Source: a virus (Duplodnaviria; Heunggongvirae; Uroviricota; Caudoviricetes). Taken from it: a stretch of DNA of 64,000 nucleotides. Shown one piece after another: positions 2,614-39,560 of the stretch. Position 1 is the first letter of the stretch. Each line of letters begins with the position of its first letter. Both the position numbers and the translations under genes were made by a program. The notes beneath the pieces are model-generated. The model did not search any database and was not told where the DNA came from. It worked only from the letters and a program-made list of their open reading frames with translations. The stretch is from IMG/VR virus record IMGVR_UViG_3300031994_000063; one strand, 5' to 3'.

Positions 2614-2689
2614 GGGAACACACAGCAAGTATTTTTGATTTAACAAGTAATTAAATTTGGGTTTTAAAAGTACAGTTAAAAATGTTCCC
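2614..2689 (+). ncRNA. hairpin-bounded repeat element (GGGAACA..CACAGCAAG .. UGUUCCC), copy a
   Basis: 5' gggaaca pairs with 3' tgttccc. Conserved ACAGCAA follows the 5' stem. Member of a family of 12 or more copies. Confidence 0.5.
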
Positions 2690-2696
2690 TTAAAAT

Positions 2697-2767
2697 TGGG
2701 GTATGGTGTAATGGTAACACTACAGATTCTGGTCCTGTCATTCTTGGTTCGAATCCGAGTACCCCAA
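2697..2767 (+). tRNA. tRNA-Gln(CTG)
   Basis: Perfect 7-bp acceptor tggggta/tacccca. D-arm gtgtaatggtaacac. Anticodon loop ttctggt. T-arm cttgg-ttcgaat-ccgag. Confidence 0.6.
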
Positions 2768-2769
2768 CG

Positions 2770-2840
2770 AATGGTGGTTCGACTCCACCTCGCTGACCGA
2801 GATTGTGGTAAATTCAACAAAGGGGTTCGAATCCCCTTCC
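2770..2840 (+). other. two isolated T-arm-like hairpins (tggtggttcgactccacc; aggggttcgaatcccctt), probable tRNA remnants
   Basis: Canonical GGTTCGANTCC T-loops flanked by 4-5 bp stems. No acceptor or anticodon arms around them. Confidence 0.35.
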
Positions 2841-2872
2841 TATTATTGGGTAGAGGGTAAGTTGAGGTCATT

Positions 2873-2997
2873 TCAGTCAATGGTGTAATGGTAGCACACC
2901 TAGTATTGGCCTAGGAGGTTTCAAGCTATAGTGCATATGGGAAGGCTTGATGGCGTTAGGAATAACGGTGGTAGTTCGAATCTATCTTGGCTGACAT
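2873..2997 (+). ncRNA. tRNA-like gene with ~50-nt insertion between anticodon arm and T-arm (anticodon region tattggc, Gln-like)
   Basis: Acceptor gtcagtc/ggctgac. D-arm tggtgtaatggtagcaca. Anticodon stem cctag/ctagg. T-arm ggtag-ttcgaat-ctatc. Total ~125 nt. Confidence 0.35.
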
Positions 2998-3189
2998 TGA
3001 GCTTATTAGTCCCTGAGAGTCGCAAAGCGTCACTCAAACTATGTAAGCCTTGTTGGGAAGCAAGTCTTTTGAGATACTAATCTAGAGTGGGAACTAGAAC
3101 GAGGAAAGATGATGTATTGCATGAGCTAGTTACCTTGTGCATTTGCTTAATTGAAACTACTTCCCTTTATTTAAAAAACATATGCCGTT

Positions 3190-3627
3190 ATGAATATAGA
3201 AAAAAGTTTCGATGCCGCATTCAAACGAATGAAAAAGCGTAATTGGGAGAAAATATACGTGCTTGTGGATATTCACGACACTGTATTTGAGGCTTGTTAT
3301 CACGAAAAAGAAGAGTATAAGTGGTATCCCTTTGCGAAGGAAGCATTGGATATTATGAGTCATGCTCAGCAGATTTCTCTCATACTATGGACATCAACAT
3401 ATGAAAATGTCATAAATGATTATGTTGAATATTTTAAAACTAATGGTATTAAGTTTGATTATATCAACCGAAACACTGAAACAGAAAACACATCACTGTC
3501 TTGCTTTGATGAGAAAACATATTTCAATGTAGGTATTGATGACAAGTTTGGGTTTGAGGCAGAAACAGATTGGGTAGTAATTTATCACTATCTTGTAGAA
3601 GGCATAAGGTTAGGGAAATTTAAATGA
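3190..3627 (+). CDS. hypothetical protein (possible HAD-like, VLVDIHDTVFE)
   Basis: 145-aa ORF. DxHDT-like segment is suggestive only. Confidence 0.45.
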   Translation: MNIEKSFDAAFKRMKKRNWEKIYVLVDIHDTVFEACYHEKEEYKWYPFAKEALDIMSHAQQISLILWTSTYENVINDYVEYFKTNGIKFDYINRNTETENTSLSCFDEKTYFNVGIDDKFGFEAETDWVVIYHYLVEGIRLGKFK

Positions 3628-3840
3628 GTGTTATGGATGAATATAATGAAAGATGGAAAAAACGTTGTGACGCATGTTCTTGTAACCCTTGTGATGGGCG
3701 TGATAGAATACTAAGGGTAAAATGCCCATATCCGTGTTGTTATGACGATAAATAAAAAAATTAAATAAGCATAAAAGCATACACAGTTCGCCACTGTGGT
3801 CAATTCGAAAGGATTGTGGTTTAGAAACCTATGCTTAATT

Positions 3841-3934
3841 CGAGGGGTAACGGCAGCGGTCTGTAAAACCGCCCTGCATTAACAAATTGTCGTAGTGGAC
3901 TCGCAGTAAGTGTGTTCAAGTCACACCCCCTCGA
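3841..3934 (+). tRNA. tRNA-Tyr(GTA)-like with 37-nt variable region
   Basis: Acceptor cgagggg/cccctcg. Anticodon stem gcggt/accgc with loop ctgtaaa. T-arm gtgtg-ttcaagt-cacac. Confidence 0.5.
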
Positions 3935-3963
3935 CAAAAAGGAATCTAACAGCAATTGATATA

Positions 3964-4045
3964 GACTTCAGACGGTTAGCTTAGTGGCTTAAAGCCTTGG
4001 ATTTTACCAAGAGAACGTAGGTTCGAATCCTGCACCACCTTAGTT
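3964..4045 (+). tRNA. tRNA-like (D-arm gctt-agtggctta-aagc, T-arm gtagg-ttcgaat-cctgc); anticodon unresolved
   Basis: Canonical D- and T-arms are visible. Acceptor pairing and anticodon loop could not be resolved by eye. Confidence 0.3.
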
Positions 4046-4132
4046 TTAATGATTCCGACATATACTTGGAAGCGTGACCTTGAAAAGCCAAGCCCAATCC
4101 ATCAGTGGCGGTAAATTGTCCAAGTTTTTAAT

Positions 4133-4214
4133 TCAGGCGGAAACGGCACATACAGTCTGCAACTAAGCCGTGTTTGATATAGCAGAGTTCGTTGGTTTGA
4201 ATCCAGCCCGCCTG
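4133..4214 (+). tRNA. tRNA-like (acceptor caggcgg/ccgcctg, T-loop tttgaat)
   Basis: 7-bp acceptor complementarity. T-arm gttgg-tttgaat-ccagc. Internal arms non-canonical. Confidence 0.35.
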
Positions 4215-4412
4215 ACGCATTGGGGGATTGTAGTCACCGCTTTGGACAATGCTAGGAAGTCTACATAGAAGAACAGACTTGATAAGAAGTAGGCAAATAA
4301 TAGTCATATAATAGTAGTACTGTAAAAATGATAACGATATGCTGAGGTAATTGATAGTAACTAGTAATGGTATCTGCTCGTAATGGTATATACTACTGTT
4401 CAATTTTTTAAA

Positions 4413-4490
4413 TGGGATAGTTGGCCGAGCGATTTAGGCGCAAGTTTGTGGCACTTGTTTAGGTTGGTTTGACTCCAACACTACCCCCAT
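4413..4490 (+). tRNA. tRNA-like with Ser/Leu-type D-region (ttggccgagcg), anticodon loop ttgtggc (GTG?)
   Basis: D-region matches TGGCCGAGCGG of class II tRNAs. Anticodon stem caagt/acttg. T-arm gttgg-tttgact-ccaac. Acceptor has one mismatch. Confidence 0.35.
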
Positions 4491-4507
4491 AATTTATTTA
4501 TAATATT

Positions 4508-5446
4508 ATGACAAATCTTAAATTGCTTACATATAACGTTGATGGACTTCCAGAAACATTGGATTTGAATGACCTCCCTTGGTTGTTTAAACCCTTTGTA
4601 TGGATATATAAGCTAATAAAGGGTACAACTGTCATTACGATTAATGATAACGTAAATAAAAAAGAGAATAATGATAAAATTGCCAAATATTTAAATTCCT
4701 CTGATGCTGACATCATTGCGGTTCAAGAGGATTTTAACTACCATGACAACTTAATCTCTAAGTTGGATAAGAAATATAATTGCGGTACTTATCTCGGTGG
4801 TTTTGACCTTTCCAAGATATTCTCAAACACTGAGTGGTTAACATATTTCCCACTTCCTAGATTTAAATGTGATGGTCTTAACTTGCTAACCAAAAAAGAA
4901 AAAGTTACCACAATTAATGAAACCATTATATCATGGAAAAAGAATTGTGGGTATTTCAGCAACGCCAACGATGCATTAACTCATAAGGGGTATAGGTTTT
5001 ATGAAATTATGAAAGAAAACGTGAAAATTGGTGTGTATGTGATTCATATGGATGCCAATTACTATACCGCTGATACTACAGAGGCTCCAAAAGACATCAA
5101 GGCTAGAGAAGCACAATTGAAGCAATTGGCAAAAGACGTAATAGAAAATTCAAAGGGGAATAACCCATTGACAATAATCATAGGTGATACAAACAGTTAT
5201 AATCAATATTCTTGGGATGTAGATAACCTTAAAAAGAATTTAATTGAACCAATTGAATCAACATATAACTTAACAATACAAGAGGTTGTGCCACAGAATT
5301 TTGCAGACTGTGATAGAATATATACAATAAGTAATGTGGGATTACTGAAAACCTTGAATATCAAGAGTTGTTATTTTGATAAGGAAATGGAGGGGGTTTC
5401 TGACCACTTACCATTGGTTTGCGAAATAGAATTTGAAAAAAAATAG
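4508..5446 (+). CDS. endonuclease/exonuclease/phosphatase (EEP) family protein
   Basis: 312 aa. N-terminal LTYNVDG and IAVQE. C-terminal SDHLPL, the EEP SDHxP catalytic motif. Confidence 0.65.
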   Translation: MTNLKLLTYNVDGLPETLDLNDLPWLFKPFVWIYKLIKGTTVITINDNVNKKENNDKIAKYLNSSDADIIAVQEDFNYHDNLISKLDKKYNCGTYLGGFDLSKIFSNTEWLTYFPLPRFKCDGLNLLTKKEKVTTINETIISWKKNCGYFSNANDALTHKGYRFYEIMKENVKIGVYVIHMDANYYTADTTEAPKDIKAREAQLKQLAKDVIENSKGNNPLTIIIGDTNSYNQYSWDVDNLKKNLIEPIESTYNLTIQEVVPQNFADCDRIYTISNVGLLKTLNIKSCYFDKEMEGVSDHLPLVCEIEFEKK

Positions 5447-5505
5447 TTAAAATATTTGGAGTTTTCAATTATTTTTTATATTTTTGCATCGTTAAAATAA
5501 AATAA

Positions 5506-5647
5506 GGAAACATACAGCAAACATCTATTGATAGCATTTGACTGATAATCAAAGGGTCGTGAGTTCGAGTCTCACCCTCCCCACAAAAGGGAATAAAACT
5601 TGGGGAGGTAGCTCAGTTGGTAGAGAAAAATCAAAAAAATGTTTCCG
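5506..5647 (+). ncRNA. hairpin-bounded element copy b enclosing a circularly permuted tRNA-Ile(GAT)-like unit
   Basis: Closing helix ggaaacat/atgtttcc. Inside: anticodon stem tttga/tcaaa with loop ctgataa, variable gggtc, T-arm gtgag-ttcgagt-ctcac, 3' acceptor cctcccc. After a 17-nt linker comes the 5' acceptor ggggagg plus D-arm tagctcagttggtagag. Confidence 0.5.
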
Positions 5648-5748
5648 AAAATCATAGGGTAGGAATGGAGTTTGGTAACGCAGGAAGTATCCAAGGTTCT
5701 CCACGTTAAATAAAAAAACTGCGAGGTTTATCACTTGCATCGTTTTAT

Positions 5749-5821
5749 CTAGGTGTAGTTCAGTTGGTAGAATGCGTCATTTGGGATGATGTGGTCGGTG
5801 GTTCGAGTCCACTTACCTAGA
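5749..5821 (+). tRNA. tRNA-Pro(TGG)
   Basis: Acceptor ctaggtg/tacctag. Anticodon stem cgtca/tgatg with loop tttggga. T-arm ggtgg-ttcgagt-ccact. Confidence 0.6.
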
Positions 5822-5957
5822 CAAATTGGTGGTTCAGTAAGAGGATTGCGCAAGGCGGTACTAAAAGAAACTAGAGAGTAGTGAATCCTATGGATAGGTG
5901 AATAAATTCTGTAGGAACGCAGCCTATCGGCAACGTGGGTTCGAATCCCACACCATC

Positions 5958-6075
5958 AACTAAGGATACTTACAGCAAATGTAACTTTGTTACAATTTCT
6001 TGGTTCGAATCCAAGCTAAACCTATGGTTTAAGCACCCATTCGTGGGTATTGGTATATTAAAACAAAAGTATCCG
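5958..6075 (+). ncRNA. hairpin-bounded element copy c (ggatact..tacagcaa..agtatcc) with internal T-arm and UUCG hairpin
   Basis: Closing helix ggatact/agtatcc. Internal cttgg-ttcgaat-ccaag and ccca-ttcg-tggg. Confidence 0.45.
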
Positions 6076-6096
6076 TTTTTTTTTTATGATAATATT

Positions 6097-6411
6097 ATGG
6101 GAGAATATAAAAAAATAACAAAAGAAGATATTGACTTTCCTAATTATTGTTTCTTTTTCATCAAAGAAATAAATGAAAGTTTGGAAGAGAACGATATTAC
6201 AAATCCAGGAGACGAATTATCATTGGAGTTGGAAACTTCAGAGCATCCTTATTGTTATGATGCTTTTGAGTTGATTGTTAGAACATTTGAGAGAAAAGGT
6301 TTTAGCACTAGAATTCCAACTTTTCATCTAGTGAAAAAAGATGGGGTGAAAATATATACTTATAATTGGAAACTCATTAAACTCCCAAAGGCAAATGATT
6401 TACCATTTTAG
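6097..6411 (+). CDS. hypothetical protein (start trimmed to avoid tRNA-like sequence)
   Basis: The table ORF 5935-6411 begins inside tRNA-like sequence. First in-frame ATG downstream of that sequence is at 6097. Confidence 0.5.
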   Translation: MGEYKKITKEDIDFPNYCFFFIKEINESLEENDITNPGDELSLELETSEHPYCYDAFELIVRTFERKGFSTRIPTFHLVKKDGVKIYTYNWKLIKLPKANDLPF

Positions 6412-6464
6412 ATAAAAATTTGATTTTAATTCATATTTTAAAATAATAGTAAATAAAAAAAGTT

Positions 6465-7493
6465 ATGAAGAAGATTTTTTTAATGTTGGCACTTGTTTGT
6501 GCCGTTGTGAGTGCAAATGCACAGATTGCAACAGAGAACAGTAATGCTTTCGATAACGTTGGGGTTGGTGTTACTGCTGGTGTATCTACACCGCTTGATT
6601 TCAACTCCGTGTTCCCTTTGAACACAAACGTTGGCTTGAAGATTACTAAGGATATTACACCAGTAATCGGATTCCAGATTGAGGGTCTTGCCGTACTCAA
6701 CGACAATCATTTCAGTGACCTTAAGACCGCTGTGAAGGCAACTAATGTCGGACTTAATGGCGCATTGAATTTGTCAAACCTTTTTTGGGGCTACAAGGGT
6801 ACTCCGCGAGTGTTTGAGGTTAGCACCGTTACGGGTCTTGGATGGCTTCATACATGGAACACATCTAAGAATAATCTGACCGCAAAGACTGGTCTTGACC
6901 TTGCGTTTAACATTGGCAAGAATAAGGCACATAGTTTGGTATTGACACCAGCGGTGTATTGGAACTTGAATAAGATTGACGCAATTCAGTTCAATAAGAA
7001 GGGCGCACAGTTGGCACTTAACTTGACTTATGTGTATCATTTTAAGACTAGCAACGGAACACATCATTTCAAGACATACGATGTTGGTGCAATGACCAAC
7101 GAGATTAATTATCTGCGTGGAAAACTTGATGAGTGTGAGAAACGTGAGCCGAAGGTTGTTGAGAAGATTGTTGAGGTTAAAACTCCAACTACTGATGCAG
7201 CAGTAGTGAAGAATGGAAATAACTCTTGGGTTGTTACATTTGCTACAGCAAGTTCAGTATTGACAAATGAGGCTAAGTTCATTCTTAACCAAGTTGGGGA
7301 TAATGCAGTTGTAGATGTTACTGCAACAGCAAGTCCTGATGGCTCAAGAGAGTTTAACCAGCGTCTCTCTGAGAAGAGAGCGGCAGTTGTTGCCGATTAC
7401 CTATCAAAGCGTGGAGTGAAAGTTAATAGTTTCGCTGGCAAGGGCGTAAGTGCCGAGAGTGGTAGGTCTGCTGTTGTTAAGACAGTTCAGTAA
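6465..7493 (+). CDS. OmpA-family outer-membrane protein (signal peptide, beta-barrel-like N-domain, OmpA-like C-domain)
   Basis: MKKIFLMLALVCAVVSANAQ signal peptide. C-terminal SPDGSREFNQRLSEKRAAVVADYL is OmpA-like. Visibly higher GC than surrounding genes. Confidence 0.6.
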   Translation: MKKIFLMLALVCAVVSANAQIATENSNAFDNVGVGVTAGVSTPLDFNSVFPLNTNVGLKITKDITPVIGFQIEGLAVLNDNHFSDLKTAVKATNVGLNGALNLSNLFWGYKGTPRVFEVSTVTGLGWLHTWNTSKNNLTAKTGLDLAFNIGKNKAHSLVLTPAVYWNLNKIDAIQFNKKGAQLALNLTYVYHFKTSNGTHHFKTYDVGAMTNEINYLRGKLDECEKREPKVVEKIVEVKTPTTDAAVVKNGNNSWVVTFATASSVLTNEAKFILNQVGDNAVVDVTATASPDGSREFNQRLSEKRAAVVADYLSKRGVKVNSFAGKGVSAESGRSAVVKTVQ

Positions 7494-7744
7494 CAACTCA
7501 ACTAAGGAGAATTACAAACGATTAGCGTTGGCGGTGATTCTACGTCCAAAACCGCAAGTTTATCGGTCATCAAATATTTGTCTACATTCTCCTTATTTTC
7601 AATTCTATAGGTGATTAGATAAACGGTTGCTGCGATAAGGTAAACAGCTCAAGGACTAATACCAAACCAGATGTTCTTGCCCTTTTTCATTAAATATATG
7701 TGTTCATAAAATATATTTGGAACATCAGTAAGTTAGTTCACCAT

Positions 7745-7816
7745 GCGAGTGTAGTTCAATGGTTAGAATGGGACCCTTCCAAGGTTCATATGACGGTTCG
7801 ATTCCGTTCACTCGCT
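7745..7816 (+). tRNA. tRNA-Gly(TCC)
   Basis: Perfect acceptor gcgagtg/cactcgc. Anticodon loop cttccaa. T-arm gacgg-ttcgatt-ccgtt. Confidence 0.65.
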
Positions 7817-7822
7817 CAACGT

Positions 7823-7971
7823 GGAAACGTACAGCAATGTATATCGTTTTAAAAAGCATTCCAAGCTAGGGGTCGCAGGTTCGAGTCCTGTCCGCCACTC
7901 AATTTTATAAACTATAATGTGGCGGTAGCTCAGTTGGATTAGAGCACTAAAAATAAACAACAAACGTTTCC
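7823..7971 (+). ncRNA. hairpin-bounded element copy d enclosing a permuted tRNA-like unit (3' half then 5' half)
   Basis: Closing helix ggaaacg/cgtttcc. Inside: T-arm gcagg-ttcgagt-cctgt plus 3' acceptor ccgccac, then a 21-nt linker, then 5' acceptor gtggcgg plus D-arm tagctcagttggattagagc. Confidence 0.5.
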
Positions 7972-7988
7972 TTTTTAAAACAATAAAA

Positions 7989-8183
7989 ATGGATAAAAAG
8001 AATACCATTAAAAAGATTTTTTTAAGGCTGATAATAATAATTTTATTTGTACCATTAACGTTATTATTGCCTTTACAAGTTATCTATTTTGGCCTCAGAT
8101 ATGCAGTGTGTGGTAATTTTGTTTGCGATAACCCTTTACCGTTTTTATTTGCAGAGTGGCTAACGGAGAAATATAACTTGTAA
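7989..8183 (+). CDS. small hydrophobic protein
   Basis: 64 aa, strongly hydrophobic (LIIIILFVPLTLLLPLQVIYFGL). Confidence 0.4.
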   Translation: MDKKNTIKKIFLRLIIIILFVPLTLLLPLQVIYFGLRYAVCGNFVCDNPLPFLFAEWLTEKYNL

Positions 8184-8191
8184 TAATTAAT

Positions 8192-8264
8192 GCAGACGTA
8201 TATCAATTGGTAGATAGCCATCTTGCCAAGATGGAGGTTGGGGAATCGTACTCCCTCGTCTGCT
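8192..8264 (+). tRNA. tRNA-Gly(GCC)
   Basis: Acceptor gcagacg/cgtctgc. Anticodon stem ccatc/gatgg with loop ttgccaa. Non-canonical T-loop. Confidence 0.55.
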
Positions 8265-8288
8265 CTTTTCAGTAAGAAACTTAACAAT

Positions 8289-8492
8289 ATGGAAAAATGT
8301 ATGCGTTGTAAGCATGAGATAATTCTAGAAGGAAACTTTATGCTTAGTGAAATCAACGGAGAAGAATTGAATGAAGATGATGATACGATGGTGACTTATG
8401 CACATTGCCCTTATTGTGGCGCAAGGTATGAGTTGACAGATACACCAGAATCTGAAAAGAGGAATTATCCATATTGGAAGATTGGGGTGTAG
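8289..8492 (+). CDS. small zinc-ribbon protein (CxxC ... CxxC)
   Basis: Trimmed from table ORF 8223-8492, which starts inside tRNA-Gly. MEKCMRCKHE ... HCPYCGARY. Confidence 0.5.
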   Translation: MEKCMRCKHEIILEGNFMLSEINGEELNEDDDTMVTYAHCPYCGARYELTDTPESEKRNYPYWKIGV

Positions 8493-8573
8493 CTTAGACA
8501 GTAAAAGCACATGCCTTATAAGCATGAGATAGTGGGAGCATTACCCATCGCCCCTACAATCTTTTTTTACAAA

Positions 8574-8701
8574 GGAAGCAAACAGCAATATTTGTTTAAA
8601 ACAGCTAATCGTAATTGATTTCGTGGGTTCGAATCCCACACTTTCCTAGATGAAAGTTGGTGGAGTGGGTAAACACGGCAGTCCAAAAACAATTGTTTCC
8701 G
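8574..8701 (+). ncRNA. hairpin-bounded element copy e (ggaagcaa..acagcaa .. ttgtttcc) with internal T-arm gtgggttcgaatcccac
   Basis: Terminal complementarity with one G·U. Internal T-arm plus acceptor-like helix actttc/gaaagt. Confidence 0.45.
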
Positions 8702-9270
8702 ATTATGCGCCTATGGGGGAATTAGTAGACCCGTTAGTCTTAGGAACTAATGTTGAAATATACGTATCAGTGCAAGTCTGATTAGGCGTACAAAAGGTGC
8801 TACGACAAGACTGAGGAAGCCAATTTGATAGTGGCGAGTTCGTATAACGCTGTAGTTAAATGGTATTTGAGTAACAGCCTTTATTAATAGGTATAGGTCA
8901 GTAGGCTTGGAAGCAGCCATCTGTTAAAGAGTGACAGTACTCAGTAAGTGGTGAGGTAATATGTTTTATGGGTTTACACCTCGTGCAAAAACCCTAGGTG
9001 CATCTAGATAATTTGGGAGTTGCAAATCCCTAACTGGCGAGAGACGAGAGGTCGAAGTCGGAGAGTCTGGAATATAAGACCGAATGAGGCTCGTGAAGTC
9101 AAGCTAGAGAACCTTTAAAGCCGCTGCTGGACTCTTGGACGAAACAGTAAACGTAAATCGTGAGGCGTAAAGTTAACTGCGCTGTCTTTGGCGTAACAGC
9201 ACACCTGTAACTATTTATTTTTAGTTGATATTTATTATTATTAAATAATAGGTATCAACTTTTTAATATT

Positions 9271-9510
9271 ATGAAACTTTCAGAAAATAGAATAAGACAA
9301 ATCATTAGAGAAACAATTGAAGAAGCAACTTTTGGTAATGTAGACCAGTTTACTCCTTATACACCAGAGGAAAGAGAACAGAACTTTAAAGGATTAGGAA
9401 GGATGGGTAATCCATCCTACGATGCATTTAAGGCTTGGAGAGAAGAGGGATTGAAGAGAGGCATTCCTTCAATACAACTTTCTTGGAACAATTACATCAA
9501 GCAAAAATAA
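9271..9510 (+). CDS. hypothetical protein
   Basis: 79-aa ORF on the coding strand. No motifs recognised. Confidence 0.5.
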   Translation: MKLSENRIRQIIRETIEEATFGNVDQFTPYTPEEREQNFKGLGRMGNPSYDAFKAWREEGLKRGIPSIQLSWNNYIKQK

Positions 9511-9532
9511 TTCTCTAAAAAATGTGAAATAA

Positions 9533-9568
9533 TTTGGCTATTCCAATTTTTTTTCATATATTTGCATT
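9533..9568 (+). promoter_or_regulatory. Bacteroidetes-type promoter upstream of small membrane peptide gene
   Basis: tttggctattccaattttttttcatatatttgcattg. Confidence 0.6.
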
Positions 9569-9586
9569 GTTAAAACGAAAAAACAA

Positions 9587-9757
9587 ATGGGAAGATTACT
9601 ATTTTTCATGTTCGCTACATTAATCATGACACTTATATTTATGACGGTGTTTAGTTTCCTAAGTAGAAAAGGCAATAAGGTTTCAAAAAAAGAAAGTAGA
9701 GAAGCCTTTGAAAAGGATATTGATGATTTAGCTAACAAAATAAAAAATAAACAATAA
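9587..9757 (+). CDS. small membrane peptide (56 aa, one TM helix)
   Basis: MGRLLFFMFATLIMTLIFMTVFSFL... lies directly after the promoter. Below the 60-aa ORF-table cutoff. Confidence 0.5.
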   Translation: MGRLLFFMFATLIMTLIFMTVFSFLSRKGNKVSKKESREAFEKDIDDLANKIKNKQ

Positions 9758-9966
9758 TAAGGTATATCTAATCTGAGAGTAAGTGGGCGATTAGTAGGAA
9801 AAGAATGCGGATGGCGTGAAATAATTAGTTGCGCAACACACGTTGTCTTATAGGTTCTGACTGAAAGTCGCATAGGAATGGGCAAATAGATTGGGTTGGT
9901 ATCGAGTTTGCCAAATGGAAAGAGTTATGCCACCTAAAGTAACTCTTGTGTATCAGATTAAAAAAT

Positions 9967-10621
9967 GCATCCGTAGCTCAATTGGACAGAGCAACGGCCT
10001 TCTATTTAAATTGGATGCATAGGCGAGAAATCCCTATGTAGAATCTCCCTAAAACGGTGGAAGTCCTAGTTAAAATTGAAGACCCTTAGTACTTATAAAG
10101 GAAAGTGGAATACGGTTTCAATGGCTTGCAGCAAACGTAAACTGCATCTGAAACAATAAGGAAGGATAATACCGTGCTAAATTGAATGTAGAGGCGAAAA
10201 AATCTCTAATGAGAATGAAAATACGCTTCAGAAAAGTTAATGATTAAGTATGCTACATTCATAAATGTGTAGAGAGTATATAGGAGATATGAGGGAAATA
10301 CATTGAATACCCTCACATTCTATTCAGATGTATCTGATAAGAATGCCTAAGTTGAAATTAAAGATGGTAGTCCAAACAGGTTAGAATGCGAAGATAAAAG
10401 TAGTATTACTATGGAAGTAGAACGCCAATCTGACTTGCAAGAATTTCAATATGGTAATAATGTATTCCAGACCACAATAAAATTATCAGATTCAAGAAGC
10501 AAATAACCGTGAAATTCGGTCGCGTGTGTATAATCAAAGCTCGCGGAAAAGATGATTTTAGCTATGGTAACATAGTGTGACAGGAAGCCGTAGGTTCTGG
10601 GTTCGAGTCCCAGCGGATGTA
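9967..10621 (+). tRNA. split tRNA-Arg(TCT) interrupted by a ~580-nt intervening sequence (group I-like intron candidate)
   Basis: 5' exon 9967-10003: acceptor gcatccg, D-arm tagctcaattggacagagc, anticodon 5' stem acggc, loop start cttct. 3' exon 10585-10621: aa, anticodon 3' stem gccgt, variable aggtt, T-arm ctggg-ttcgagt-cccag, 3' acceptor cggatgt. All stems complementary. Upstream exon ends in U, intron ends in G. aagatggtagtcc at 10361-10373 resembles the group I S element. Confidence 0.5.
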
Positions 10622-10627
10622 CTAATT

Positions 10628-10716
10628 GACCCTATAAAACGTAATTGGATGACCGTCACTGTCCTCTAAACAGTTCTACCGAGAGGTAGTTGGGGGTTCG
10701 AATCCCTCTAGGGCCA
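10628..10716 (+). tRNA. tRNA-Arg(TCT)-like with long variable arm
   Basis: Acceptor gacccta/tagggcc (6 of 7 bp). Anticodon stem actgt/acagt with loop cctctaa. Variable hairpin ctacc-gag-aggtag. T-arm ggggg-ttcgaat-ccctc. Shares 5' region aaaacgtaattggatgaccgtc with the 11109 gene. Confidence 0.4.
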
Positions 10717-10760
10717 CAACGTATCTAGGAAGCCCAGTTGCGCCTAGCTGCATGTTAGTA

Positions 10761-10913
10761 GGAACGTACAGCAGTTTGATTTAAATTTACAAAACATTTT
10801 TAATTATTAATCAGACTAGACGAAGATAAGAGAAGCGTTAAATAATCATTGCGAGGCACTTATCTATGCTCTTCGGAGCGAATGCCGAGTCAAGGCAGTA
10901 AATTGACCGTTCC
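10761..10913 (+). ncRNA. hairpin-bounded element copy f (ggaacgtacagcag .. cgttcc)
   Basis: Terminal helix. Internal UUCG hairpin gctc-ttcg-gagc. T-tract after the 3' stem. Confidence 0.45.
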
Positions 10914-10946
10914 TTTTTCTTTGAACGCAATTGACACAAAATAAAT

Positions 10947-11101
10947 GGAAACGTACAGCAGTTGACGAATCAAATTACATATTCAACTTAAAATCTCCAT
11001 GATTTTAATTAGGCAAAGGGTCGCATACCGCATTATAATAGCGAATAATAGTAACTAATTGTGATGGTCTGAATAAATGACTAGAATAAACCTACGTTTC
11101 C
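10947..11101 (+). ncRNA. hairpin-bounded element copy g (ggaaacgta cagcag .. tacgtttcc)
   Basis: 9-bp terminal complementarity. T-tract follows. Confidence 0.45.
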
Positions 11102-11108
11102 TTTTTAT

Positions 11109-11197
11109 GTAGAGGTAAAACGTAACTGGATGACCGTCCTAGTCTACGAAACTAGTGTATCGAAAGGTACTTGTGGGTTCGAATCCCACCCTCTATA
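11109..11197 (+). tRNA. tRNA-Arg(ACG)-like with long variable arm
   Basis: Acceptor gtagagg/cctctat. Anticodon stem ctagt/actag with loop ctacgaa. T-arm gtggg-ttcgaat-cccac. Confidence 0.45.
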
Positions 11198-11216
11198 CAA
11201 AATCAAATTTCCAAAT

Positions 11217-11549
11217 ATGATAATAAAAGTAAATACTGACATAGAAATCAATATAACTGAAACATATTTGATAGTTAAAGACAAAAAACTCTATAACACT
11301 GTCACTAAAAAATATGAAGGAGTAGAAGGTGATATTGTTAGTTTTAACTACATCAAAGAAGATGGCAGAAAAAGTGGCTACAAAGGATATGTTGATGGGT
11401 ATACCAATGGAGAAAATATAAAAATAAGAGGTATAAACCAAGTTTTTACACAAATTGGAGATAAAAACGTTGAACATATTTCTAGTGTTACTAGTTATAG
11501 TGATATAACTGATGAAGAAAGAGATATATTAATTGCAGAATCTGCATAA
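11217..11549 (+). CDS. hypothetical protein (start trimmed)
   Basis: Table ORF 11130-11549 begins inside the tRNA. ATG at 11217 (MIIKVNTD...). Confidence 0.5.
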   Translation: MIIKVNTDIEINITETYLIVKDKKLYNTVTKKYEGVEGDIVSFNYIKEDGRKSGYKGYVDGYTNGENIKIRGINQVFTQIGDKNVEHISSVTSYSDITDEERDILIAESA

Positions 11550-11627
11550 TTTTTTTCACTAAAAATTTGGAAATTAAAAAAATTATTTATATATTTGCAT
11601 TGTGAAACTCAATAAACAACGGATACA

Positions 11628-12062: not shown

Positions 12063-12400
12063 AAAAAAAAATAAAAAAAAAAAATACAAAAAATAGAACT
12101 TTTTGAGAGTTAAATAATAATTATAGAAAAATCAATTAAACTTTTATATTATGAATACAACTATTAAAAATATCGTTAATACAATTTCTAATTCATTTGC
12201 GGATAGTAAATGGAACGATACAGTTGTGTTTAACTCAAAGGTTCTAGAACAGCTAGAAGGTGATATGGAGGTTTGAAAGATTATGTAAATAGGCACTTAC
12301 TTCACTATATATTTCCCAAGCTGTTGATGAACTCCAAAAAAAGTAATCAGCAGCTTTTTTATATATTATGGGTTAATGAAAGTTAATTTATTTACAAAAA

Positions 12401-12436
12401 TTTGGATATTAAAAAAATTTTTCGTATCTTTGCAAA
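12401..12436 (+). promoter_or_regulatory. promoter driving tRNA-Phe region
   Basis: tttggatattaaaaaaatttttcgtatctttgcaaaa. The tRNA-like 5' end starts ~12 nt downstream. Confidence 0.55.
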
Positions 12437-24009: not shown

Positions 24010-24012
24010 CTA

Positions 24013-26768: not shown

Positions 26769-26773
26769 CATAA

Positions 26774-28145: not shown

Positions 28146-28244
28146 CTACAGCTAGTACAAAGTTAAAAATTGTTAAAGTTGAACTGATTATTTGGTTAGT
28201 TCACCTTTTTTTCGTACCTTTGCATCAATAAAACAATAAACAGC

Positions 28245-28703: not shown

Positions 28704-28798
28704 TGTTAAATAAGATTAAAGTTGAGGAAGATGGTTGTCTTTCTCAATTTTTTTTTATATTTTTGCAATAAAGTAAAAAATAATTTATAATAAAAGCA

Positions 28799-30089: not shown

Positions 30090-30510
30090 TATGATTACTG
30101 TGAGAAAATTTTGGACTATTGTATTCATAACAATTGCGTTGTCATTTTCTTTATTAGCCTATGCTGATACCTATTATTTCCAAGGTGTAAAGAAAAAAGA
30201 TACAAATGGCAAAGAATATCTTATTTTTAACGATGGACGAGTTGATATTGGTCTCAAGATAGATGAGAATGACAAATTGCAGTTAATTCCTATAATACCT
30301 AAAACCGACTCCATAGCGAAACAGAAAAAAAAAGACGAAAAAATGGAAAAAGAAAAAAAGAGTGTTGCAAACATTCAAAATTTTGTGAATAATATTTTGA
30401 AACTATCTGTCACCCTTATTGGAATGATAATTATTTTCCTTGTTGTTTCTGTTTTATGCGGCATAATTTGGATAATTGTTGGGATACTTACAATTTATAA
30501 AAAAAGTTAA
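30061..30510 (+). CDS. membrane protein (N- and C-terminal TM helices)
   Basis: FWTIVFITIALSFSLLAYA and LIGMIIIFLVVSVLCGIIWIIVGIL. Confidence 0.5.
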   Translation: MSFNLNKNINMITVRKFWTIVFITIALSFSLLAYADTYYFQGVKKKDTNGKEYLIFNDGRVDIGLKIDENDKLQLIPIIPKTDSIAKQKKKDEKMEKEKKSVANIQNFVNNILKLSVTLIGMIIIFLVVSVLCGIIWIIVGILTIYKKS

Positions 30511-30574
30511 TAAATTTGGCTATTCCAATGTTTTTTCATATCTTTGCATTGTGAAACAAAAAACATTATAAGTT

Positions 30575-34753: not shown

Positions 34754-34810
34754 GTTTTTAACACGAAAAAATTTGGAAATTACAAATAAAATTTATATCT
34801 TTGCAATGTG
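34754..34810 (+). promoter_or_regulatory. promoter, copy 1 of a 57-nt tandem duplicated unit
   Basis: gtttttaacacgaaaaaatttggaaattacaaataaaatttatatctttgcaatgt. Repeated at 34854 with period 100. Confidence 0.55.
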
Positions 34811-34853: not shown

Positions 34854-34910
34854 AATGTTTTTAACACGAAAAAATTTGGAAATTACAAATAAAATTTATA
34901 TCTTTGCAAT
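34854..34910 (+). promoter_or_regulatory. promoter, copy 2 of the tandem duplicated unit
   Basis: Identical 57-mer to copy 1. Confidence 0.55.
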
Positions 34911-36066: not shown

Positions 36067-36069
36067 TAA

Positions 36070-36372: not shown

Positions 36373-36660
36373 ATGAAAACTAGGGATAAAGCATATAGAA
36401 GGTGGAAAGACCGCATGAAATATGTATCTAGGCTGAAAAAGGTTCTATATTATTGGGGTGTTGAAGATAAAAATGCCCCTAACAAATGGAGAAAGGCGAA
36501 AAACTGGAAAGAGTTAGATACTCCAGATAGTAAAGCTAAACAGTATAAGACTGTTACTAGAAAATGGTCTTATATGTATGATAAAATAGAATCGCATATA
36601 AGGAATAAAAAACAACGAAAAGAAGGAAAAGATATTTCAAATAATTTTCTTAAAACATAG
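36373..36660 (+). CDS. hypothetical basic protein
   Basis: 95 aa. Lys/Arg-rich. Confidence 0.5.
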   Translation: MKTRDKAYRRWKDRMKYVSRLKKVLYYWGVEDKNAPNKWRKAKNWKELDTPDSKAKQYKTVTRKWSYMYDKIESHIRNKKQRKEGKDISNNFLKT

Positions 36661-37319
36661 TATTTATGATACCATGTAATGAAAAATGTCAATTATATTT
36701 TAGGTGCGAATTTGCAAGTCGCAGACCTAGATGTATTTTCGATATGGGGATATATGTTGAAGAAGAAGATGAAGATGAATTTCTTGAAAAATTAACTTAT
36801 TAAAATAAGAATAAATTATGATGATGCCAAAAGATAAAGAAATGCAAGATTTTTTCCGTAAGAAATTGAGGATAGCTTTACTTGGTGAAACATCATTAAT
36901 GACGCACAATCAAGTGAGCGAATTATGTAGGAAATTCTTTGAATACGGCATAGAATACGCTAAAAAGTCTTAAGGAAAGTTTTGTTAGGCAATTAAATAG
37001 AATAATTATGCAAGTACTTTAAATAGAACTATAATATAATTATGGATTATATATTAATAGAAAATTATGCTTGTGGTTTAACAGACTTATATTTGTATCA
37101 CCTAGCCAGCACGTGAGGCAGATTGGGATGCAAGGGCTTTCAAGGTTAATCCAACTAGCAATGGCGTAGCTAACTATTGCATAGGGGTTAACTTTTTTGT
37201 TTTTTAACGGTAGTAGTACATTGTACGAGAATGTTGACCTAGGCGGCAGTGGTGCAAATCCATAACTACCGACATTAGTTATAATAATTTAATTAAAAAA
37301 TTTAGAAAATTAAGTAAAG

Positions 37320-38681
37320 ATGAAGAAGTTATTGTTGATGGGTTTTGTAGCCCTTGCTTTCGCAAGTTGCGTAAGTGACAAATCAGTTGCCCCACAGACT
37401 CATAACCAAAAGTACGATGCTGCTTTTGAGAATCTTGTGGGTGGTAAAGTTAACGCCAATGTAAATTGGGGCTTCACTGATATGAATACCAATGTGGTAA
37501 AGGATAAAGATGATGCAAGTGTCTCTCGCCGTGCGCATAATGTAAATCGTAATGAGTGGGGTACTTCTTCTTGTGCTGTTAAAGTTCCTGTAAACGTTAC
37601 TCCCAATGAAAGACAGTTAGTTTATGACTATTTCAATGCAAAACGTGAGGGAGCTGTTAACAAGAATAACGTCATTTGGACTGACTACTTCATTTCTGAG
37701 GTATGGAAAGGTACGTCTACTTCTAAAGATGGAAATGGAAATGATGTATTAGGTTCTGACAAGATGAATCACTTGCAAGTTCTTAAGGGTGATGGCAGCA
37801 TTAACTCTGATGGTGCTTTAGTAGGAAACTGGGAGCACGCAAACGACTTCAATAACGGTAGCCACAACTCTTCATTTGGTACTATAGAAGGACATACATT
37901 TATGTATAATAGTGGTACATACGATTTTGCTTATCATAATACAGTGGATTCTAAATACCATAATGAATATATAATTATTCCTGGTTCTGAAATTGACCCC
38001 TCTTTAGCAGAATATTACTATGTTGGTTTCGATTTCTATGCTACACATCCAACAGGACAAGAGAATAATAAGAACATGGATGTTGAGCGCGACTGGTTCT
38101 TTACTGACTGGATTGTACGTATCAGTCCTGCGGAATATATGGATACTCAGCGTATTATGGTCGAAGACTTGATTGACAGCAATCTTAACAATGTTAATAT
38201 CAGTGACTGGGACTTTAACGATGCAGTATTCGATGTAGCTTTTACTACTAATTATGACGGCGAAAAAAAGAAGAATCTAGATTATGCTGTTATCACTCTG
38301 TGGGCAGCAGGTGGTACTAAGGCTCTGACTATAGGTGGTAGGGAAGTACACGAGTTGTTTGGCCAGTCAGTTTCTACCATGATTAACACCAATGCTAATG
38401 GTGGTGTAGATGGCTTGGCTCCTGTTCAATTCCGTATACTTCTTGGCGAGTCAACTTACGCTCCACATAATGCCCTTGAGGTTGTAACAAAGGTTAATTC
38501 TACAGAATTGGTAGCCAAGCAGGGTGAGTCAACTCAGAAATTTGCTGTTCCTGTTGGTACTCGTTGGATGAAAGAACGCAAATTAATAACAGTTACATAT
38601 ACAGAATTCTCTAATTATGTAAAGAATAATTCTCCGTTAGAGTGGTACAACACCGTTACCAATGCAAGCCTTCTGTATTAA
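37320..38681 (+). CDS. lipoprotein (453 aa)
   Basis: MKKLLLMGFVALAFASC lipobox. Asn/Gly-rich. Higher GC. Confidence 0.55.
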   Translation: MKKLLLMGFVALAFASCVSDKSVAPQTHNQKYDAAFENLVGGKVNANVNWGFTDMNTNVVKDKDDASVSRRAHNVNRNEWGTSSCAVKVPVNVTPNERQLVYDYFNAKREGAVNKNNVIWTDYFISEVWKGTSTSKDGNGNDVLGSDKMNHLQVLKGDGSINSDGALVGNWEHANDFNNGSHNSSFGTIEGHTFMYNSGTYDFAYHNTVDSKYHNEYIIIPGSEIDPSLAEYYYVGFDFYATHPTGQENNKNMDVERDWFFTDWIVRISPAEYMDTQRIMVEDLIDSNLNNVNISDWDFNDAVFDVAFTTNYDGEKKKNLDYAVITLWAAGGTKALTIGGREVHELFGQSVSTMINTNANGGVDGLAPVQFRILLGESTYAPHNALEVVTKVNSTELVAKQGESTQKFAVPVGTRWMKERKLITVTYTEFSNYVKNNSPLEWYNTVTNASLLY

Positions 38682-38780
38682 TTTGAGCCCATCAAATGCA
38701 ATCATAAACAATTTTTTCAAAATAGGGAAATATTTATTATATATTAAGAAAATAATATATTTTAATAGTGTAAGTAAGTA

Positions 38781-39368
38781 ATGTTTATAGGGTCTAATAA
38801 TTCATTAACATACCTTAGACCATCTACATGGTGGTCTAAGGCTTTCAAATGGTTTGGAAAATGCCAATCAGCAGACTACAAAGAGCAATATACATATTGT
38901 GGCGTGAGATTTTTTGATTTTCATCTATATGCTGATAATCATTGCCATGTCATTATAAAAAACGGAAAATATAAATATAATTTGTTTTCATTCTATGAAA
39001 CACTCAAATATCTCAATGATAAAGGTGATGTAACTCTTAATGTAGTTTTTGAAGCATCTTTATCTGATAAAGATAATGATACAGAATACAAAAGAATTGA
39101 AAAAAAATTCTCTGAAATATGTGGAATAATGGAAGTCATATACCCAAATATTAAATATATAGGTGGGTATAGGAAATATGATGGGGAAAAATTATATACC
39201 TTTAAGTATGAAGCGGAAAACGGAACTCCTAACATTATTGATATGAGCAATAACATTTGGCTTTACCGTTTTCTTCCAATCCTATCTAGTTTCAGAAATA
39301 GATACTACATCAAGAAATATGAGAATGAAAATGGTTTTCTTCTTTTAAATTTCGTTGATAGAAGATAA
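38781..39368 (+). CDS. hypothetical protein
   Basis: 195-aa ORF. No motifs recognised. Confidence 0.5.
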   Translation: MFIGSNNSLTYLRPSTWWSKAFKWFGKCQSADYKEQYTYCGVRFFDFHLYADNHCHVIIKNGKYKYNLFSFYETLKYLNDKGDVTLNVVFEASLSDKDNDTEYKRIEKKFSEICGIMEVIYPNIKYIGGYRKYDGEKLYTFKYEAENGTPNIIDMSNNIWLYRFLPILSSFRNRYYIKKYENENGFLLLNFVDRR

Positions 39369-39380
39369 AATCTCATAAAT

Positions 39381-39463
39381 AGTGGTATGGTAGAGTGGTC
39401 AATTGCGCTTCTCTCATAAGGAAGTTGGGAAACCTATCGCTGATTCGAATTCAGCTACCACTA
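39381..39463 (+). tRNA. tRNA(CAT) with long variable arm
   Basis: Acceptor agtggta/taccact. Anticodon stem cttct/ggaag with loop ctcataa. T-arm gctga-ttcgaat-tcagc. Confidence 0.5.
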
Positions 39464-39468
39464 CAAAG

Positions 39469-39560
39469 AAGCATACAGCAAGTATCTCTGTGGAGGAATG
39501 GTATACTCAATAGTCTGCAAAACTATTTTTTGTGGGTTCGAATCCCACCTTTAATGCTTC
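39469..39560 (+). ncRNA. hairpin-bounded element copy l with internal T-arm gtgggttcgaatcccac
   Basis: gaagcat acagcaag ... atgcttc. A terminator-like hairpin follows at 39574-39604. Confidence 0.45.

Follow-up and report, generated by a model that had tools for sequence, protein, structure and literature searches.

The window analyzed here, i.e. the whole stretch of 64,000 nucleotides taken from the IMG/VR virus record IMGVR_UViG_3300031994_000063, looks like part of a jumbo Bacteroidota phage, a large phage of gut or rumen. It contains 31 tRNA genes recognized by ARAGORN and one transfer-messenger RNA (tmRNA), all on the + strand, with eight further tRNAs detected by Rfam; NAD-salvage genes are found among its open reading frames (ORFs), scanned with Pfam and PHROGs. 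The lineage is compatible with the 'Jug' phages of Bacteroides/Phocaeicola, to which it may belong (PMC12880540, where tRNAs are mentioned nowhere). The subject of this report is a family of repeated, hairpin-bounded elements found among these tRNA genes. Each element is composed of a 7-bp end-to-end helix (P1), a U, the heptamer ACAGCA(A/G), a "cargo" of 35–130 nt and the complement of the first strand (P1'). All copies lie on the tRNA strand (+), to which all coordinates given below refer.

Terminal helix and conserved heptamer

The family is real. When the window is searched for GGRAMC-N-Y-ACAGCAR, one mismatch being allowed, 11 matches are found on the + strand, against 0.12 expected. For all 11, picked blind to their 3' side, a complement pairing from the first base over 7 bp or more is found within 330 nt: the chance of such a complement, estimated on shuffled sequences, is 2–9% per copy. 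The reverse search, starting from GGRAAC-type end-to-end helices, finds ACAGCA at +9 in all 13 solid copies; the other 21 + strand helices lack the motif and are background-like. A loose initial pairing filter, with free G·U pairs, accepted about half of random ACAGCA sites, and was replaced by a stricter one.

An earlier note, based on the sequence alone, had described a family of 12 copies or more: all 12 are found again, along with one that it had overlooked, at 18500, and a weak fourteenth at 3943. Its start coordinates hold for most copies, three being corrected (5958 to 5964, 10761 to 10760, 39469 to 39467). The "degenerate copy" proposed at 61086–61170, in contrast, has only GGAAACAC in common with the family, and neither ACAGCAA nor a 3' complement is present. 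The tRNA-like gene found there (61085–61172), upstream of the RNA ligase gene, features an anticodon arm enlarged by about 14 nt (CACAAGAAACGUGGAAACACAAAGUAAGGUG) and stands outside the family.

Covariation of P1 was evaluated on the paired ends of 36 distinct members, from the window and from viral contigs. Seven of the eight pairs show changes on both sides, with a score of 0.496 versus 0.186 in shuffles; none of 500 shuffles reaches the observed value, and pairing collapses when the partner strand is slid. Pairs 1–6 are formed in all 216 cells, the sole non-Watson-Crick types being G·U and U·G, in the + sense. As P1 covaries, and as its wobbles would be A·C mismatches on the other strand, it is a helix formed in the + strand RNA. 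Selection on an RNA helix had been proposed by the earlier note, and is supported here; the exact complementarity it ascribed to the ends is not general, since a G·U pair is used in copies 8574 and 26774, and the helix measures 7 bp. The percentages are inflated by the way members were selected, while the count of pair types and the tests confined to the window are independent of selection.

The same data bear on a possible DNA-level origin of the repeats, as miniature inverted-repeat transposable elements, integron attC-like recombination sites or decaying tRNA pseudogenes. Inverted-repeat termini, a high number of copies and variable interiors would all be expected of such elements, and homing endonuclease genes and introns are numerous in the Jug phage group (PMC12880540). 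Yet the ends covary copy by copy, with no fixed sequence; G·U mismatches occur only in the + sense, and all copies are on the transcribed strand; orthologous positions, with conserved flanks, are occupied in the related phages L036, L091, L076 and L102; target-site duplications are not seen, and compensated helices would not persist in pseudogenes. A DNA-level feature is hardly credible on these grounds. Orthologous positions and covarying ends also leave without support the mobile, intron-like cassette envisaged by the earlier note.

The consensus of P1 is GGAAACN/NGUUUCC. Position 8 is a U in 37 of 50 aligned members, unpaired in half of the family, and is directly followed by ACAGCA(A/G) in all 50. 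Within the elements, segments complementary to the heptamer are rarer than expected (UUGCU, for example, is present in one element, versus 4.2 expected), indicating that the heptamer is apparently kept single-stranded, which would suit its recognition in trans. The search for a pairing partner in cis gave a negative result: complementary 4–5-mers are depleted, and the only candidate, UGUUG in the elements of type C, shows no covariation. An A-rich joiner leads into the 3' strand of P1, and the base directly past P1' is U or G, in no case A; a conserved GU or AA is found before G1. The constant part of the family is limited to this stem-bulge-stem platform, made of P1 and the heptamer.

Cargo built from tRNA parts

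The cargo is tRNA-derived in every interpretable copy, a point missed by the earlier note; its account of the interiors (rods rich in A and U, UUCG hairpins, T-arms, units of permuted tRNA) is accurate. Five copies are short rods, where P1, the heptamer bulge and an inner helix lead to an apical hairpin, with a 4–6-bp stem and a 7-nt loop of anticodon form (CUUUUAA, UUUGGGU, UUGUCAC, CUUGAAA, UUUGUAA). Inner helices are seen in 2614, 22178, 23842 and 26774, as well as in 7823, which is not a rod. Copy 1 (2614–2689; P1 GGGAACA, 2614–2620, with UGUUCCC, 2683–2689; motif 2622–2628) carries the anticodon-like hairpin UUAAA-UUUGGGU-UUUAA (2651–2667), and is located 6 nt past tRNA-Leu(AAG), with tRNA-Gln 7 nt downstream. 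Copy 9 (22178–22249; P1 GGAAACAU/AUGUUUCC; motif 22186–22192) begins 4 nt past a tRNA-like 3' end; besides its inner helix, it features the hairpin CAAAA-CUUUUAA-UUUUG. Copy 10 (23842–23906; P1 GGAAAC(U)/(G)GUUUCC; motif 23850–23856) presents UCAAA-UUGUCAC-UUUGA (GUC); a promoter at 23781–23820 lies about 20 nt upstream, and a class-II-shaped tRNA(CAU) 18 nt downstream. The hairpin of copy 11 (26386–26448; P1 GGGAACUU/AAGUUCCC; motif 26394–26400) is AUUUG-CUUGAAA-CGAAU (UGA). In copy 12 (26774–26838; P1 GGAAGCAU/AUGUUUCC, with one G·U pair; motif 26782–26788), found 5 nt past another class-II-shaped tRNA(CAU), the inner helix UAGGA/UUCUA is combined with UUGA-UUUGUAA-UCAA.

Anticodon-type hairpins (a Y-U-NNN-R-N loop on a stem of at least 4 bp) are present in 31 of 50 members, versus 5.7 in shuffles, T-arm hairpins being counted too. 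The loops that do not belong to T-arms (CUUUUAA, CUGCAAA, UUUGGGU, CUUGAAA, CUGAUAA, UUGUCAC) presumably match the anticodon loops of authentic tRNAs.

Five other copies (5506, 7823, 8574, 18500 and the miniature 5964) contain a permuted tRNA-like domain, arranged in the order anticodon arm or hairpin, variable region, T-arm, acceptor 3' strand, a loop of 3–21 nt, acceptor 5' strand, and D-arm or D-loop. The break positions, the Gly-type arm of 7823 and the D-loop of 18500, described below, were assigned by manual threading. In copy 2 (5506–5646; P1 5506–5512, P1' 5640–5646; motif 5514–5520), as in its relatives, a complete, circularly permuted tRNA(GAU) is opened between positions 26 and 27: the anticodon arm UUUGA-CUGAUAA-UCAAA (5537–5553) is followed by the T-arm (5559–5575), the acceptor 3' strand CCUCCCC (5576–5582), an 18-nt spacer, the acceptor 5' strand GGGGAGG (5602–5608) and the D-arm (5611–5625). 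A promoter (5449–5488) lies about 20 nt upstream. Copy 3 (5964–6074; P1 GGAUACU/AGUAUCC; motif 5972–5978), 4 nt past a tRNA-like 3' end and followed by a U10 tract, is made of a hairpin, the T-arm CUUGG-UUCGAAU-CCAAG, an acceptor-like 7-bp stem with a 3-nt loop and, at the D-arm position, a UUCG hairpin.

Copy 4 (7823–7971; P1 GGAAACG/CGUUUCC; motif 7831–7837) may be seen either as a permuted tRNA or as a relative in shape of the Y RNA YrlA, discussed below. A leader-trailer helix, UUUUA/UAAAA, is followed by AAAGC-AUUCCAA-GCUAG (a Gly-type anticodon arm, if a weak one, or else a conserved V region), then by a T-arm, the acceptor stem CCGCCAC/GUGGCGG with a 20-nt loop, a D-arm and the conserved 3' joiner AUAAACAACAA; tRNA-Gly(UCC) ends 6 nt before the element, and a U-tract follows it. 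Copy 5 (8574–8700; P1 GGAAGCA/UGUUUCC, with one G·U pair; motif 8582–8588) is composed of a hairpin, a T-arm, a 6-bp acceptor stem with a 6-nt loop and a class-II-like D-arm; 6 nt downstream lies tRNA-Leu(UAG). Copy 8 (18500–18628; P1 GGGUACA/UGUACCC; motif 18508–18514; U-tract after) contains the anticodon arm ACAAA-CUGUUAA-UUUGU (GUU), a T-arm, the acceptor stem CCCAUCC/GGAUGGG with a 21-nt loop and the D-loop-like UUGAAAUGUUGG, with no D-stem.

A full cloverleaf with anticodon is thus found in 5506 (Ile GAU) and, outside the window, in L056, L089-373 and L035-12057; it is partial in 18500 (Asn GUU), for want of the D-stem, and in 7823, where only the weak Gly-type arm is available. In L089-373 and L035-12057 the break falls within the anticodon stem, at 29/30. 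Acceptor, T and anticodon stems covary between phages: in type B, eight of eight acceptor pairs are changed on both sides.

The remaining copies are of other types. Copies 6 (10760–10914; P1 AGGAACG/CGUUCCU; motif ACAGCAG, 10768–10774; U-tract after) and 7 (10947–11101; P1 GGAAACGUA/UACGUUUCC, 9 bp; motif ACAGCAG, 10955–10961) carry an unclassified cargo, in each about 130 nt of conserved, structured RNA, which in copy 6 includes a GCUCUUCGGAGC hairpin. Orthologs of copy 6 are found in L035, L089, L093 and L102, with which copy 7 shares GCGAAUAAUAGUAAC; the ortholog L089-4242 of copy 7 has a compensated P1, GGAAGCG/CGCUUCC. Copy 7 is followed by a U-tract and by tRNA-Arg(ACG). The blocks GAAGAAGCGUUAA, GCGAAUAAUAGUAAC and UAAGGCAA are common to both cargoes and to the four related phages. 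The short strings AGACUAGACG, GCCGAG-CAAG and UAAGGCAA, seen in the two cargoes, are presumably shared with the Azoarcus group I intron core; no match to Rfam Intron_gpI was obtained in support of a group I intron origin, which is at most a tentative lead. Copy 13 (39467–39561; P1 AGAAGCAU/AUGCUUCU; motif 39475–39481), 3 nt past a class-II-shaped tRNA(CAU), lacks an acceptor of its own and holds a D-arm, the anticodon arm AAUAGU-CUGCAAA-ACUAUU (GCA) and a T-arm in unpermuted order; its cargo (39484–39556) scores 43.6 bits with the Rfam tRNA model. The weak fourteenth copy (3943–4056; P1 GGAAUC/GAUUCC, 6 bp; motif ACAGCAA, 3949–3955) contains at 3970–4041 an unpermuted tRNA-like body, called 'tRNA-???' by ARAGORN, and has an ortholog in L033.

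No cargo module is universal: an anticodon arm is missing from 5964, 8574 and L089-2364, T- and D-arms from the rods, and the acceptor of 5964 is sealed by its 3-nt loop. What all members have in common is therefore the platform, and not a decodable tRNA.

Copies such as 5506 suggest another explanation, that these are genuine circularly permuted tRNA genes, where P1 and ACAGCAA would act as a leader-trailer signal joining both ends. Leader and trailer would be removed and the nick, at 26/27 or 29/30, sealed by the phage ligase of the Rnl2 family; RNase P, 3' processing and the phage CCA enzyme would open the acceptor loop, while the rods would be regulators or relics. The arrangement of 5506, 7823, 8574, 18500 and their orthologs, with a 3' half, a 3–21-nt spacer and a 5' half, is the one expected, and their 7-bp acceptor stems covary. 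According to our own reading, past the internal acceptor 3' strand come a discriminator base and usually C, as in the canonical tRNA genes of the window, a pattern not seen after P1'. In L089-373 and L035-12057 ACG, adjoining the D-arm, and GA, adjoining the loop, make up the anticodon stem, so that the 29/30 break falls within a duplex. Nicks inside a duplex are of the type sealed by Rnl2 ligases. The window encodes a PF09414 RNA ligase (61409–62317) and a CCA-adding enzyme with an HD domain (57076–58482), as well as a candidate metallophosphoesterase (ORF 53835–55250), suggested by a GNDD-like motif spotted by eye only. Finally, the YrlA RNA of M. smegmatis, with the same order of domains, is cut by RNase P and CCA-tailed (PMC4201824).

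Most copies, however, do not fit. The definition of a permuted tRNA, a full cloverleaf with the 3' half upstream, applies to only 3–4 of the 13 copies, and 8 of the 13 are unable to yield a tRNA (the rods, 5964 with its sealed acceptor, 10760 and 10947 with their unclassified cargo); in some type C orthologs the anticodon arm is missing. Between ACAGCAA and the presumed splice point lie 9 to 25 nt, depending on the copy. Canonical genes for Ile(GAU), Gly(UCC), Lys(UUU), Pro(UGG), Ser(UGA) and Thr(UGU) are already present in the window, and the discriminator base remains unchanged when the anticodon changes in orthologs. Permuted tRNA genes of Cyanidioschyzon merolae, other algae and Thermofilum pendens share with the copies the upstream 3' half, the paired transcript ends and a variable break. 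There, a bulge-helix-bulge at the break is cut by the splicing endonuclease; here, threading of 5506, 7823 and L089-373 does not allow a bulge-helix-bulge (3-nt bulge, 4-bp helix, 3-nt bulge) to be drawn, leader and trailer meeting instead at a three-way junction, and no splicing endonuclease is found in the window. The copies also differ in having their break always at the D/anticodon junction (26/27 to 29/30) and a heptamer in the leader, in belonging to a bacteriophage, and in that most members could form no tRNA. No permuted tRNA of bacteria or phages was found in the literature searched, nor any mention of this motif in phages.

Two-piece tmRNA offers a partial parallel, as T-arm and acceptor 3' strand come before the 5' strand of the acceptor, whose loop undergoes processing; the elements, in contrast, feature neither an mRNA-like frame nor pseudoknots, and Rfam tmRNA models match only their T-arm and acceptor pieces, with 16–22 bits. 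The phage tmRNA is of the one-piece type (23068–23390; tag peptide GENVNSPAYEYAIAA); GACAGCAAUG is found by happenstance just after its acceptor strand, and in its 5' part, GGAUUUGACAGCAAUG, the family heptamer directly follows a D-loop-like segment, perhaps by coincidence. On balance, genuine permuted tRNA genes, the main rival of the reading preferred below, are a real possibility, although not a probable one.

Distribution and genomic surroundings

About 75 distinct members were identified in about 35 IMG/VR viral contigs of 14–412 kb, mostly larger than 90 kb; IMGVR_UViG_3300021387_000463, 3300028888_000044 and 3300011989_000257 are examples. The pattern GGAAACNTACAGCAA-N35-65-GTTTCC was also searched in 185,579 bacterial and archaeal genomes, one per species: it produced 36 matches, against about 34 expected, and a single true member, on a phage-like Bacteroidales contig, directly 3' of a tRNA. 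As the genome scan is at chance level, the family is a feature of phages and not a host RNA; all this points to a phage-specific family of small structured RNA genes, embedded in tRNA operons. A dispersed repeat of Gaoshiqia hydrogeniformans (NZ_CP186334.1; L122, L131, L148, L149), with at least four copies, begins with GGAAACTTACAGCAAATTTCAAA and ends with GTTTCC; the family 15-mer is present there, but only 6 bp are paired, and the interior is G+C-rich and unrelated. No near relative of the window, nor any near match, was found among deposited phage genomes; the syntenic relatives are IMG/VR contigs of 90–412 kb. The only distant match, a tRNA 3' fragment next to the integrase of Bacteroides phage BS-TP2, is taken for an att site and not for an element.

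Between related phages, orthologs retain the architecture, rebuild P1 and swap the anticodon triplet (UGU/UAU/UGA/UUU; GUU/GUC/UUU). At the site of copy 9, after the same conserved tRNA-like gene, the elements of the window, L036 and L091 differ in length (about 50, about 65 and 72 nt among the three), construction and P1; their loops are CUUUUAA, CUUUAAA and CUUUUAA. Orthologs of 26774 display UUUGUAA, CUUAUAA, CUUGAAA or CUUUUAA on the same stem, while the orthologs of 26386 in L036 and L091 have an unchanged loop on an altered stem. For 18500, the triplet is GUU, GUC or UUU, and two orthologs are devoid of an anticodon arm. Triplet swapping within a constant architecture is what would be expected of a mimic under diversifying pressure.

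Among the 13 copies, seven begin 3–6 nt past the 3' end of a tRNA or tRNA-like gene, RGU directly precedes P1 in about one third of the family, and a U-tract (at least four U within 6 nt past P1') follows 7 of the 13; for at least three of the six without U-tract, another tRNA is found within 20 nt downstream. Such positions, and the resemblance of P1 (7 bp, then U8) to an acceptor stem, would be compatible with a cis-acting element of tRNA operons: the terminal clamp would set tRNA 3' ends, for example through an endonuclease cut 5' of P1, guard transcript ends from exonucleases and terminate transcription with the U-tract, the cargo being mere filler from duplicated tRNA genes. The cargo does not behave as filler, though, since its helices covary and loops are kept between phages while stems change. 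Moreover, copies 5506 and 23842, about 20 nt past their own Bacteroidota-type promoter, are the first genes behind it, and one copy follows another copy; an invariant single-stranded heptamer would be superfluous in a terminator or protective stem, and RNase Z can mature CCA-less tRNAs with no need of a downstream structure. Compared with intrinsic terminators, where a G+C-rich hairpin runs straight into a U-tract, the helix is long-range and A/U-rich, enclosing 35–130 nt. A cis-acting element is consequently judged unlikely, and the pure tRNA-processing or terminator signal suggested by the earlier note fits poorly with the two promoter-first copies, the covarying, conserved cargo and a U-tract tied to operon position. 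The third function envisaged there, the target of a phage RNA enzyme, is a candidate still.

HDV-like theta ribozymes occur downstream of phage tRNAs, which they release. The elements, located directly 3' of tRNAs, with a conserved core beside a helix beginning with G and conserved flanks (GU or AA before G1; U or G, never A, after P1'), could similarly be small self-cleaving ribozymes, or substrates of a dedicated nuclease, cut at the 5' edge of P1 to free the upstream tRNA. Like theta ribozymes and the mascRNA-type signal, they are structured elements placed directly 3' of a tRNA or RNA gene, but some copies precede tRNAs or come first after a promoter, and the topology is not that of HDV: the partner of P1 is at the 3' end, and G1 pairs with C, not with U. 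Only about seven conserved nucleotides are unpaired, no pseudoknot partner was found, and none of the ribozyme families of Rfam gives a match, even when filters are relaxed and E values up to 10 accepted. By manual comparison, HDV-like, hammerhead, twister, hatchet, K-turn and C/D-box structures were discarded, either for their topology or because core nucleotides are missing. Taken together, these points make a ribozyme or nuclease substrate very unlikely.

The promoters mentioned above belong to a strongly conserved promoter-like repeat of 40 nt, AAATTTGG-N17-19-TAtcTTTGCA, of the Bacteroidota -33/-7 type, present in at least 15 copies: 2115–2154, 5449–5488, 9527–9566, 11560–11599, 12395–12434, 18647–18686, 21458–21497, 21750–21789, 23439–23478, 23781–23820, 27686–27725, 28728–28767, 30509–30548, 34766–34805 and 34869–34908.

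The tRNA genes of the window present peculiarities of their own. Seven are class-II-shaped, with a long variable arm and a long D-loop (11109–11198, 10628–10717, 19832–19918, 23925–24010, 26683–26769, 39381–39464, 28055–28146), and carry anticodons unusual for class II: ACG, UCU, CCA, CAU (three genes) and CUA. The three tRNA(CAU) directly adjoin elements of the family. As seryl- and leucyl-tRNA synthetases disregard the anticodon, such tRNAs may be recoding or mistranslating. A direct repeat of 134 nt with 87% identity (24013–24146 and 24313–24446, 300 nt apart) is found in non-coding sequence downstream of one class-II tRNA(CAU). An insert of 581 nt, presumably a group I intron although the Rfam Intron_gpI model does not detect it, splits the anticodon loop of the tRNA-Arg(UCU) gene at 9967–10622; when introns are allowed, ARAGORN reports large inserts also at 14357–14969 and elsewhere. 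Inserts of 18–55 nt, some of them hairpin-forming, are found in the unpermuted tRNA-like genes at 25589–25714, 2874–2995, 24346–24458 and 25731–25841; the one at 25589–25714 is located near the D/anticodon junction, where the clamp exits in permuted copies. These genes could be closed-loop counterparts of the elements.

A possible set of RNA-repair genes includes, besides the candidate metallophosphoesterase, the CCA-adding enzyme and the RNA ligase, a 319-aa ORF (56115–57074) overlapping the start of the CCA-adding enzyme gene, and a protein of the endonuclease/exonuclease/phosphatase family (4508–5446), encoded between tRNA-His and copy 5506.

Relation to Y RNAs and possible role

Among known RNAs, the nearest architecture is that of bacterial and phage Y RNAs (YrlA, RF02553; Chen et al. 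2014, PMC4201824). These Y RNA-like molecules feature a 5'-3' stem, a bulge where a short motif is conserved, and then a further stem (PMC4201824, PMC12135203), and some possess a tRNA-like domain and occur in phages (PMC4201824, PMC12135203, PMC7824862). In YrlA the tRNA-like domain is permuted, in the order T-arm, closed acceptor, D-arm (PMC4201824, PMC12135203), and the M. smegmatis RNA is, as reported above, cut by RNase P and tailed with CCA. Some jumbo phages encode a Ro60/TROVE gene with a tRNA-like partner (PMC7824862), and Yrl1/2 are known from the Thermus phage phiLo (PMC12135203).

The elements share with these RNAs a terminal stem flanking a bulge and a second stem, and a short, purine-rich conserved motif in the 5'-strand bulge, opposite an A-rich strand. 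The YrlA order (variable region, T-arm, closed acceptor-like stem, D-arm) is present, with covarying acceptor and T stems, in five of the 13 window copies (5506, 5964, 7823, 8574, 18500), and is not found in the other eight. As for Y RNAs, several paralogs have one stem in common and differ in the rest, and the genes are found in phages. The Rfam YrlA model aligns end to end with copies 7823 (7851–7973; 34.6 bits, model positions 1–114) and 5506 (5531–5648; 33.3 bits), at E ~1e-4. Searched at the gathering threshold, the whole window yields tRNA and tmRNA only; E-value searches of 2500–11250, 7800–8000 and 10700–11120 add nothing but the sub-threshold YrlA matches.

Differences are nonetheless evident. 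Known Y RNAs adjoin rsr in 1–4 copies, while this family reaches at least 13 copies per 40 kb; in many members the cargo is limited to an anticodon-type hairpin, a feature absent from Y RNAs, and some have a full anticodon arm besides the T, acceptor and D modules. As the motif differs, the score is below the cut-off and no TROVE gene is found in the window, the family cannot be counted among Y RNAs.

The reading preferred here, to which a probability of about 40% is assigned, is that the elements are modular mimics of tRNA, of a Y-RNA-like kind, in which the docking clamp is constant while the cargo of tRNA parts varies; no published description of this kind of mimic was found. The constant platform would dock one putative protein, of phage or host, while the cargo would present a chosen tRNA part to enzymes that recognize tRNAs, candidates being anticodon-directed nucleases, modification enzymes, RNase P, the CCA enzyme and repair enzymes. 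The RNA might thus work as a decoy, a tether or a sponge, and the U-tract after terminal copies may serve as operon terminator.

Several findings weigh against this reading. The YrlA scores are half of the RF02553 gathering cut-off (69 bits), and the other copies give no match. The CGAA of Y RNAs, within the GNCGAAN0-1G motif contacted by Ro60 (motif definitions in PMC4201824 and PMC12135203), is absent, ACAGCA(A/G) standing in its place in 50 of 50 aligned members. No TROVE/Ro60 gene is found by Pfam and PHROGs among the roughly 50 ORFs of the 64-kb window, part of a genome of perhaps 300–400 kb. Copies 5506 and 18500, with their relatives, lack so little that they could be real tRNA precursors. 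In type C, a pairing of CAGCA with the D-loop-like UGUUG is predicted by RNAalifold, so that the motif is perhaps not always single-stranded. The invariance of ACAGCA is partly circular, as members were chosen by motif and pairing, a circularity lifted by the reverse search for the window only.

The search for a partner protein among the same ORFs was negative also for reverse transcriptase, splicing endonuclease and RtcB, and ORFs of 450–830 aa with no assigned function, read by eye, show no HEAT-ring plus vWA pattern. Extension beyond the window led to a 9.8-kb contig only. A certain resemblance to retrons may be noted, whose msr-msd RNA presumably features an a1/a2 terminal stem and a conserved, G-containing AGC triplet after the 5' strand; the elements differ in their many copies, in the tRNA-like cargo replacing the long msd hairpin, and in the lack of an RVT domain among the ORFs scanned.

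The turnover of triplets between phages fits with a role of the proposed mimics in tRNA-cleavage conflicts, alongside the phage RNA ligase and CCA enzyme, without being evidence for that role. A more specific formulation, itself rather unlikely, is a modular library of tRNA-part decoys, aimed at host tRNA-cleaving nucleases; equally conceivable, for a subset of the copies, would be the first permuted tRNAs of a bacterial virus, sealed by an Rnl2-type ligase. In such a library the clamp would stabilize the RNA or recruit the repair machinery, and interchangeable anticodon loops (of Lys, Cys, Pro, Ser, Ile, Tyr, Asn, Asp, Thr and Phe types) or elbow/acceptor modules would be displayed; host defense nucleases would be soaked up or misdirected, the displayed anticodon evolving fast between related phages.

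Phage tRNA arrays are usually read as gene sets for codon supply or anti-defense. In this jumbo Bacteroidota phage, a third of the 'tRNA region' is taken up by a previously unannotated RNA family, reusing tRNA parts behind one clamp; as these loci escape ARAGORN and Rfam or are called wrongly by them, the number of tRNAs counted in such phages cannot be relied on. If the elements are Y-RNA-like mimics, the Y RNA concept would extend to a multi-copy, modular form without the Ro60 motif, implying a new RNA-binding partner. Were they permuted tRNAs, gene permutation and ligase-dependent tRNA maturation would reach beyond eukaryotes and archaea, and phage Rnl2 ligases would gain a natural, physiological substrate. 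As decoys for anticodon nucleases, they would represent an RNA-based form of counter-defense.

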